10,167 nucleotides of DNA from UHGV virus genome UHGV-1332412; one strand, given 5' to 3'. Position numbers and translations under genes: made by a program. Positions 6,811 to 6,918 of the stretch are shown in pieces. Below the pieces are notes generated by a model. The model was given only the letters and a program-made list of their open reading frames with translations. It did no database searches and had not been told where the DNA came from. Numbering within the stretch: position 1 is the stretch's first letter; every line of letters starts with the position of its first letter. This DNA comes from a virus.

Positions 6811-6843
6811 ACAAAAAACCCGCTTGTGGGCGGGTTTTGTTTG
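6811..6843 (-). terminator. Rho-independent terminator downstream of the Q-like gene; candidate tR' (bidirectional hairpin)
   Basis: Stem CCCGC (6819-6823) / GCGGG (6830-6834) with a 6-nt loop. T-tracts on both sides: minus strand reads ...GCGGGTTTTTTGT, plus strand reads ...GCGGGTTTTGTTTG. Confidence 0.6.
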
Positions 6844-6889
6844 CTTTTGCCATCACGTACAAAATCGGCAAAATATCAGATTTGCATGA

Positions 6890-6918
6890 AATATATGCCT
6901 TTCAATCTACTTTTGCAA
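6890..6918 (-). promoter_or_regulatory. Candidate late promoter pR' overlapping the 3' end of the Q-like gene
   Basis: Minus strand: TTGCAA (6918..6913), 17-nt spacer, TATATT (6895..6890). The Q stop codon falls in the spacer, as pR' overlaps the end of Q in lambda. The initial transcribed region contains a -10-like TGATAT element (candidate sigma70-dependent pause/qut). The terminator at 6811-6843 lies about 50-70 nt downstream. Confidence 0.45.

Follow-up and report, generated by a model that had tools for sequence, protein, structure and literature searches.

Which switch governs transcription from the end of the Q-like gene into the lysis genes at this locus, and what part is played by the two terminators that lie between this gene and the holin gene? 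We addressed this question in the window, i.e., the whole analysed stretch of 10,167 nucleotides of the UHGV virus genome UHGV-1332412. Comparison of its sequence with those of known phages indicates that the region very likely constitutes a phage-82-type late-gene switch in a lambdoid prophage, accompanied by a probable separate unit of tRNAs and a structured RNA, which the second terminator most likely ends. A common E. coli prophage would accordingly carry a standard and well-understood phage-82-type late switch, and such switches rank among the most thoroughly studied cases of transcription elongation control. The structured RNA is the single new lead of our analysis.

All relevant genes and features of the region lie on the minus strand. 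Genes for a DUF968 protein and for RusA are located upstream of the Q gene (7591-6902), which is followed by a gap of 195 nt, the tRNA genes (6707-6398), 290 nt of non-coding DNA and the holin gene (6105-5890). Genes for YdfR, a lysozyme and Rz, and then for Nu1 and the large terminase subunit, come next on the same strand. Two deposited E. coli phage records have the same arrangement at 99% identity, as do E. coli chromosomes; the elements described below are identical in the phage records vB_EcoS-689R5 and vB_EcoM-606R7.

The Q gene and the putative late promoter at its end

The features at the end of the Q gene are the following:

6902-7591, minus strand: Q antiterminator gene, 229 aa, with its ATG at 7591 and the stop codon TGA at 6904-6902
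6913-6918, minus strand: -35 element of pR', TTGCAA, embedded in the last Q codons
6890-6895, minus strand: -10 element of pR', TATATT, with the Q stop codon inside the 17-nt spacer between it and the -35 element
6881-6883, minus strand: inferred transcription start, with +1 assigned to the A at 6883, which opens an AAA run and lies 7 nt after the -10 element
6858-6878, minus strand: predicted sigma70-dependent pause element, with positions that match the descriptions in PMC5001585
6878-6877 (+6/+7), minus strand: extended -10 TG within the pause element
6875-6870 (+9 to +14), minus strand: -10-like TATTTT within the pause element
6869-6867 (+15 to +17), minus strand: GC-rich discriminator GCC within the pause element
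6859/6858 (+25/+26), minus strand: predicted pause, with T (U) at +25
6845-6873 (+11 to +39), minus strand: first leader hairpin, UUUUGCC...GGCAAAA (-7.9 kcal/mol, z = -2.7)
6809-6838, minus strand: tR' intrinsic terminator, stem 6838-6815 plus U-tract, which ends a leader of ~72 nt

The product of the Q gene matches PF06323 over its full length (E 8.6e-92), a family that has been named Q82 (PMC9388147), and it is 77% identical to the Q protein of phage 82 (X92588) across all 229 aa. We found no relative of this protein in the PDB, and whether a nozzle mechanism operates in the Q82 family is an open question (PMC9388147).

A candidate sigma70 promoter is located at the 3' end of the Q gene on the same strand. 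It has the hexamers and the 17-nt spacing that had been foreseen in the original prediction, and it overlaps the Q stop codon as stated there, since the TGA lies within the spacer. The label "near-consensus", which this prediction had used, proved slightly generous, as the two hexamers agree with the consensus at 9 of 12 positions and the -35 element at only 4 of 6. The TGATAT described as a -10-like element of the initially transcribed region does occur at 6878-6873, and it really consists of the extended -10 TG and the first half of a hexamer. A strong hairpin terminator had been expected about 50 to 70 nt downstream, and such an intrinsic terminator is indeed found shortly after the promoter and ahead of the late genes: the tR' stem (AAAACCCGC/GCGGGUUUU, then UUGUG) occupies +46 to +69 if 6883 is counted as +1, with a folding energy of -16.8 kcal/mol and a z-score of -4.2.

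We place +1 at 6883 because this numbering puts GCC at +15 to +17 and U at +25, as published for the pR' promoter of phage 82. At the latter, an extended -10 element, the GCC discriminator at +15 to +17 and a pause at +25 with a terminal U have been described, and sigma70 is engaged at a transcript length of 21, which means that the -10-like element ends at +14 (PMC5001585). Slippage has been reported at the late promoter of phage 82, according to the title of a reference within PMC5001585, and a start in a run of A residues fits this report. The transcribed start of the window, AAATCTGATATTTTGCCGATTTTGT, is consistent with the published pause element, including the extended -10-like TGaTATTTT; the putative -10-like element, the extended -10, the GC-rich discriminator and the sequence of the +25 pause site are all found.

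A direct comparison with phage 82 required a proxy, because the record X92588, in which the same TTGCAA lies inside the last Q codons, ends at the Q stop codon. We therefore used an E. coli prophage (strain DAM) with a Q gene identical to that of X92588 at 690 of 690 positions. Downstream of Q, this prophage reads TTGCAA-17-TATATT-TCATAT-AAATCTGATATTTTGCCAATGTTGTAC. Between +1 and +27, the window and the proxy are identical at 25 of 27 positions, with substitutions at +18 and +21, and six substitutions separate them between -29 and -1. Common to the window and the 82 type are TATATT, the AAA start, TGaTATTTT at +6 to +14, GCC at +15 to +17 and the U at +25. The binding element of the phage 82 Q protein lies within -31 to +30 (PMC4914094), a region in which window and proxy are ~84% identical by a count made by eye, with 10 differences, while the Q proteins are 77% identical. 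The Q-dependent layout of the phage 82 type put forward in the original prediction, with a pause and a short terminated leader, is probably correct, judging from the protein family, the 77% identity of the Q proteins, the landmarks of the 82 pR' promoter and the typical leader length.

By homology with these systems, we infer the following course of events. The E. coli sigma70 holoenzyme would initiate at pR', at about 6883, and sigma70 region 2 would re-bind the TGaTATTTT element (+6 to +14), while the polymerase scrunches and pauses at +25/+26. In cells without Q, transcription would terminate at tR' (6838-6815) and yield an RNA of ~72 nt, of the kind represented by IsrJ. The 229-aa Q82-family protein, once present, would bind a site within about -31 to +8 and load onto the paused complex, a step in which NusA probably helps. 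The polymerase, now resistant to terminators, would then pass tR', the tRNA array, the structured RNA and the second terminator, and reach the genes for holin, lysozyme, Rz and terminase.

A literature search with the pR' sequence matched only unrelated papers. We also considered and rejected a CII-type site, TTGCAACACTTTGC, on the plus strand at 6913-6926, over the -35 element of pR': its pattern occurs four times against 2.3 expected, which is not significant, and its spacing is lost in Citrobacter. Its overlap with the -35 element resembles the paQ annotation in the phage 434 record.

A probable tRNA unit, its structured RNA and the second terminator

The following features lie between tR' and the first late gene:

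6717-6745, minus strand: candidate tRNA-array promoter TTGCAA-17-TATTAT with a GC-rich discriminator, CCTGCGCC; its -10 element ends 10 nt ahead of the tRNA 5' end
6398-6707, minus strand: four tRNA genes (CAT anticodon, Lys-TTT, Thr-TGT, Gly-TCC)
6346-6391, minus strand: hairpin A, an 11-bp perfect stem with a compensatory change relative to HK639
6215-6338, minus strand: structured RNA with covarying stems, composed of hairpin B (6266-6338) and hairpin C (6215-6265)
6165-6190, minus strand: second intrinsic terminator, stem 6190-6175 plus U-tract 6174-6165, located 60-85 nt upstream of the holin start
5890-6105, minus strand: class II (phage 21-type) holin gene, the first late gene, with its start codon at 6105

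The candidate promoter at 6745-6717 lies just upstream of the CAT-anticodon tRNA gene (ileZ type), which ARAGORN assigns to Met and PGAP to Ile, and its hexamers and spacing are identical to those of Stx2a_F349. It is conserved from the -35 element onward in three unrelated Q contexts, namely in the window, in PhiR47_1, which has a lambda-like AACGATGGG pause element, and in an Stx2a phage; the DNA upstream diverges, and the homology with PhiR47_1 begins exactly at 6745. In the Stx2 prophage Sp5, a primary transcription start has been mapped between tR' and stx2AB, which appears to drive the tRNAs (PMC7547250). On the strength of this conservation and of the start mapped in Sp5, we read the tRNA array as, very probably, an independent transcription unit.

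Downstream of the tRNAs, a stretch of 241 nt (6160-6400), which extends from the 3' end of the tRNA-Gly gene through the second terminator, is predicted to fold much more stably than shuffled sequences (z = -7.1) and contains three hairpins. In its loop, hairpin A is similar to the variable region and T-arm of the tRNA-Gly ahead of it, and it can be aligned with 3' halves of tRNA-Gly. Hairpins B and C stand out by their covariation: among 37 diverse copies, with 97.8% of the cells paired, 8 pairs show changes of both partners, and the covariation score was reached by none of 500 shuffles, and slid controls pair at 35-51%. Of 5426 complete E. coli genomes, 536 (~10%) carry this B-C element, which is annotated in none of them; it recurs in many prophages and follows tRNA-Gly in 44 of 60 distinct loci. 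It matched nothing in Rfam, and a literature search by sequence gave no match either. A short open reading frame across hairpin B was discarded as a candidate, as it is not conserved between the window and HK639 when compared by eye.

We tentatively suggest that the sequence from hairpins B-C to the second terminator belongs to an undescribed family of prophage non-coding RNAs, which lysogens could produce by transcription from the tRNA promoter, as a trailer on the 3' side of tRNA-Gly; we regard this as a working idea that is a little less probable than its opposite. Hairpins B-C may work as a regulatory RNA; alternatively, they may modulate in cis the transcription that enters the lysis genes. 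The internal tRNA promoter and the unannotated structured RNA appear to be overlooked elements of late leaders, which may be expressed in lysogens.

A put-like function for hairpins B-C was considered solely since the late leader of HK639 carries the B-C element. In a blastn search with this element against phage records, six records were found, and HK022 is not among them.

The second terminator, predicted at 6165-6189 just ahead of the holin gene, was confirmed at this place. Its stem (6190-6175, GCCCGC/GCGGGU, then UUUUCUUUUC) has a folding energy of -11.5 kcal/mol and a z-score of -4.1, and ends 70 nt from the holin start. Of 54 related hairpin B-C units, 36 are followed by a terminator that starts within 90 nt, where the rate in shuffled sequences predicts ~5, and the HK639 record has a terminator annotated at the same relative position. 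In some relatives, the stem of the second terminator is weakened, e.g., CGGTTTTTT in strain 165 (L006), which was missed by the pattern. Most related late leaders contain at least two terminators by this pattern, a count that carries no weight because the pattern has about one match per kb in shuffled DNA.

What does this second terminator do? Since a promoter lies between the two terminators, beyond the reach of tR', the second terminator is best read as the end of the tRNA unit: it probably ends the internally promoted unit of tRNAs and structured RNA, and insulates the holin gene from unmodified polymerase. The sigma70 promoter at 6745-6717 would transcribe the four tRNAs and the structured RNA without Q, and the terminator (6190-6175) would end these transcripts short of the holin gene.

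In the original prediction, the two terminators and the tRNA array had been seen as a layered safeguard against premature lysis. This view survives in so far as Q-modified polymerase from pR' must pass both terminators and the tRNA array; the second terminator as an extra check is the part that we would amend, the conserved tRNA promoter at 6745-6717 having been missed. Two independent termination events could nevertheless form a redundant barrier that shields the lysogen, as both terminators lie between pR' and the holin gene on the same strand, and stacked terminators do occur in late leaders: the HK639 record has four annotated terminators between its Q gene and its holin gene, three of them beyond the one that follows B-C. 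However, tR' is unable to stop transcripts from the conserved promoter that lies downstream of it, and the second terminator goes together with the cassette of tRNA-Gly and hairpins B-C rather than with pR' or with the type of Q. We therefore consider a redundant check on read-through from pR' less likely than the end of a tRNA unit, and give it perhaps one chance in a handful or slightly better.

The leader RNA and its relatives

Generic scans of the window found 14 promoter sites against 10.0 expected and 13 terminator sites against 11.4 expected, neither of which is above chance, and we therefore built our case on homology and comparative evidence. The combined pattern TTGCAA-N28-30-AAATCTGATAT is a different matter: it occurs once in the window against 0.00 expected (200 shuffles), and many other genomes have it after a Q82-family gene as well.

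Similarity of the Q protein (59-95%) was the sole criterion by which we collected thirteen further loci. They come from E. coli, Shigella, Citrobacter, Klebsiella, Raoultella, Buttiauxella and an unclassified Enterobacteriaceae isolate. Nine distinct ones among these were placed in an alignment that also comprised the window, the DAM prophage, PhiR47_2, phage 434 and another two copies from E. coli. The -35 sequence TTGCA is invariant among the aligned loci, and 14 of 15 have A as the sixth base. In the aligned non-coding DNA, the -10 element and the AAAT start are kept, as are the TGATAT core for the most part and the GC-rich bases that come next; further downstream the sequence diverges, yet a hairpin and a T-run are found at each locus. 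Even the loci of Citrobacter, Klebsiella, Raoultella and Buttiauxella, with Q proteins of 59-69% identity, retain the -35 element, most of the TGATAT core and a downstream terminator.

A pattern scan of viral contigs and other loci extended this set to 129 matches, in 117 of which a Q82-family open reading frame ends in the promoter. The remaining matches comprise seven that are probably due to chance and about five orphan modules like that of Gifsy-1. The conservation of the -35 element and of +1 to +11 in this survey is set by construction, because the search pattern fixed those bases; the independent facts are the Q open reading frame, the -10 element, the discriminator and the position of the terminator. 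An intrinsic terminator stem ends between +64 and +83 in 93 of 95 distinct leaders (median +71; +69 in the window). These stems have at least three different sequences, with exchanges between GC and AU at three pairs. The first leader hairpin is found at the same place in each of three sequence classes of related leaders; its covariation is weak (MAFFT plus alifold gave a mixed result) because the classes pair in different registers. The survey provides a natural variant series of ~95 distinct pR'82-type leaders for a Q family that lacks a solved structure.

Among these relatives, the locus of isrJ in the Salmonella prophage Gifsy-1 is instructive. It contains a complete 82-type pR' module, TTGCAAAACTGGATTAAAACGGCTATATTTTATGTAAATCTGATATCGTCGCC, followed by a terminator. 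The locus lies after anrP, which separates the module from its Q gene, and it retains the last codons of a Q82-type gene, ATTGCAAAACTGGATTAA, followed by CTATATTTTATGTAAATCTGATATCGTCGCC and the terminator. Salmonella IsrJ is, in other words, the terminated leader of an orphan 82-type pR' promoter. IsrK of Gifsy-1 is a leader directly after STM2617, a gene annotated as similar to Q of phage 82. IsrJ was detected as a 74-nt RNA in Salmonella lysogens (PMC2330248), which means that modules of this class are transcribed and terminated in vivo even in uninduced cells, in line with what one expects of pR'. A small RNA that had been reported as virulence-associated can hence be recast as a by-product of late-gene control. 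The leader of the window and IsrJ are similar in length and have the start region in common, whereas their sequences differ beyond about +12; the two share their origin as 82-type pR' leaders, but the window leader is not a member of the Rfam family isrJ. Short terminated leaders are on record from lambda, 21, 80, 82 and P22 (PMC7547250).

Could the ~72-nt leader of the window mainly be a trans-acting small RNA like IsrJ, IsrK or StxS, which has its own targets in the lysogen, with the link to Q being secondary? Such RNAs are known to have effects: IsrJ affects invasion (PMC2330248), and in Stx phages, the pR' leader StxS is a regulator of rpoS and stx1 (PMC7547250). The window leader, with its 5' hairpin and its terminator with a U-tail, is built like many chaperone-bound small RNAs, and positions 6814-6886 align with both Rfam models over their full length. 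These matches, however, score below the gathering thresholds, with 24.5 bits for isrJ (threshold 37 bits; E 0.0069 in a 151-nt search) and 22.7 bits for isrK (threshold 50 bits). Moreover, related leaders diverge after about +27 and retain only the terminator, which fits a structural by-product better than a conserved seed. We hence regard a main role as a small RNA as unlikely, and favour a leader that is a by-product of the late-gene switch. Weak Rfam matches to Phe, Trp and Leu leaders were dismissed, as they reflect terminator similarity only.

Many lambdoid prophages of E. coli are defective, and the module might be an inactive relic, in which the promoter or Q no longer works. Lesions are seen in some close relatives, such as ECMA0423a, which has a 1-nt deletion beside the -10 element, reads TGATAC where the window has TGATAT, and has mismatches in its terminator stem. 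In the window, by contrast, the Q open reading frame has its full length of 229 aa, every element is intact, and so are the lysis and terminase genes downstream, which makes a relic very improbable. That the promoter-like and terminator-like sequences are chance matches, as the generic scans without excess in the window might suggest, is already refuted by the comparative data and has next to no probability, given that the combined pattern is expected 0.00 times and is conserved across genera in non-coding DNA at the 3' ends of Q82-family genes.

Comparison with known late-gene switches

The late-gene switch that we propose for the window, and the tRNA unit inserted in its leader region, can be set beside four known systems. 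HK639 is the one that shares the structured RNA: its late leader carries hairpin A and the hairpin B-C RNA (74.6% identity), with the annotated terminator next and remnants of tRNAs ahead. Its tRNA genes are degraded, and the product of its Q-like gene is shorter than that of the window (165 aa).

Stx phages (Sp5, 933W type) have the same layout of pR', tR', a separate tRNA promoter and an array that starts with a CAT-anticodon tRNA (ileZ type). They are 91% identical to the window over 6554-6760, and the hexamers of the tRNA promoter are the same. The Q protein of Stx2a_F349 (L021) is shorter, with 162 aa compared to the 229 aa of the window, and the leader of Stx phages is long, with 258 nt (PMC7547250). 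Their tRNAs are followed by the stx genes, in the place of the hairpin B-C RNA and its terminator.

The pR'/6S/tR' region of lambda works by the same logic, i.e., a constitutive promoter, a sigma70-dependent promoter-proximal pause, a terminated leader and Q-dependent read-through. The lambda Q protein belongs to an unrelated family (PF03589), and the pause occurs at +16/17, with the -10-like element at +1 to +6. The lambda leader is 194 nt long.

In the prophage with a Q gene identical to that of phage 82, the leader is short as well (~80 nt, compared to ~72 nt in the window). The sequence of the window terminator differs from that of this 82-like prophage and is closer to that of phage 434. 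In the 82-like prophage, the holin gene follows after ~320 nt, without the tRNA array, structured RNA and second terminator that lie in between in the window.

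A structured RNA between tRNA-Gly and the second terminator

Between the tRNA-Gly gene and the terminator that precedes the holin, we found three hairpins, A, B and C, on the minus strand. Hairpins B and C form an unannotated structured RNA, and a comparison of 37 copies shows compensatory base changes in its fold.

6346-6391, minus strand: hairpin A, with an 11-bp perfect stem
6215-6338, minus strand: structured RNA of hairpins B and C
6165-6190, minus strand: terminator following hairpins B and C

Among 5426 complete E. coli genomes, 536 contain the hairpin B-C RNA. Usually tRNA-Gly lies before it and a terminator after it. 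A search of Rfam returned no family for this RNA, and a literature search returned no match.

Hairpin A carries a compensatory change between phage HK639 and the window. Because its loop, GAUGAUGGGAAAUCCCGG, is similar to part of the tRNA-Gly located just upstream (the variable region and T-arm), hairpin A looks like a degenerate tRNA remnant. In the late leader of HK639 (L022, 2360-2500), the hairpin A-B-C unit is preceded by 3' fragments of two tRNA genes, which suggest a decayed tRNA array.

The late leader and the strand opposite pR'

The leader transcribed from pR' contains a 5' hairpin, the 5' arm of which overlaps the pause element.

6845-6873, minus strand: 5' leader hairpin, +11 to +39

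Related leaders lend this hairpin weak support: a hairpin occupies the same place in each of three sequence classes, and a single double change within a class (GCC/GGC to GTC/GAC, in the leader of locus L036) was observed. The tR' hairpin (6809-6844), which the terminator scan listed on the plus strand, is flanked by an A-run on one side and a T-run on the other, and therefore reads as a terminator on both strands. It could also halt antisense transcription arriving from the tRNA side.

On the plus strand, TTGCAACACTTTGC (6913-6926), which matches the CII-binding consensus TTGYN6TTGY, shares positions with the -35 element of pR' on the opposite strand. The record of phage 434 has paQ annotated at the position of this CII-type match. 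The number of such patterns in the window is not significant (4 versus 2.3 expected), and conservation of the site at the pR' -35 element was not found outside the E. coli lineage.

Exceptional leaders and orphan modules

Among the 95 distinct 82-type leaders, two, each located 3' of a Q82-family gene, are exceptions to the short-leader rule: that shared by loci L049 and L126, which are identical in sequence, and that of L091 have no terminator within +230 by the rule used. The Salmonella small RNA IsrJ (Gifsy-1, L259, 33400-33520, minus strand) is the terminated leader of a phage-82-type pR' module, which is complete but orphan: it lies after anrP and retains the final codons of a Q82-type gene. 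About five viral contigs share this orphan arrangement. IsrK is the leader located 3' of the Q82-like gene STM2617.

The tRNA array and its promoter

The four-tRNA array has a promoter of its own, which is common to the window, Stx phages and PhiR47_1, and a mosaic junction falls exactly at its -35 element.

6717-6745, minus strand: conserved sigma70 promoter of the tRNA array, TTGCAA-17-TATTAT, with a GC-rich discriminator

The tRNA-Thr and tRNA-Gly genes (6398-6551, minus strand) are 100% identical to chromosomal genes of the host tRNA-Tyr/Thr/Gly cluster, an identity that suggests their capture from the host. The tRNA with a CAT anticodon (6632-6707, minus strand) was called Met by ARAGORN and Ile by PGAP; as a tRNA-Ile, it would resemble ileZ of Stx phages.
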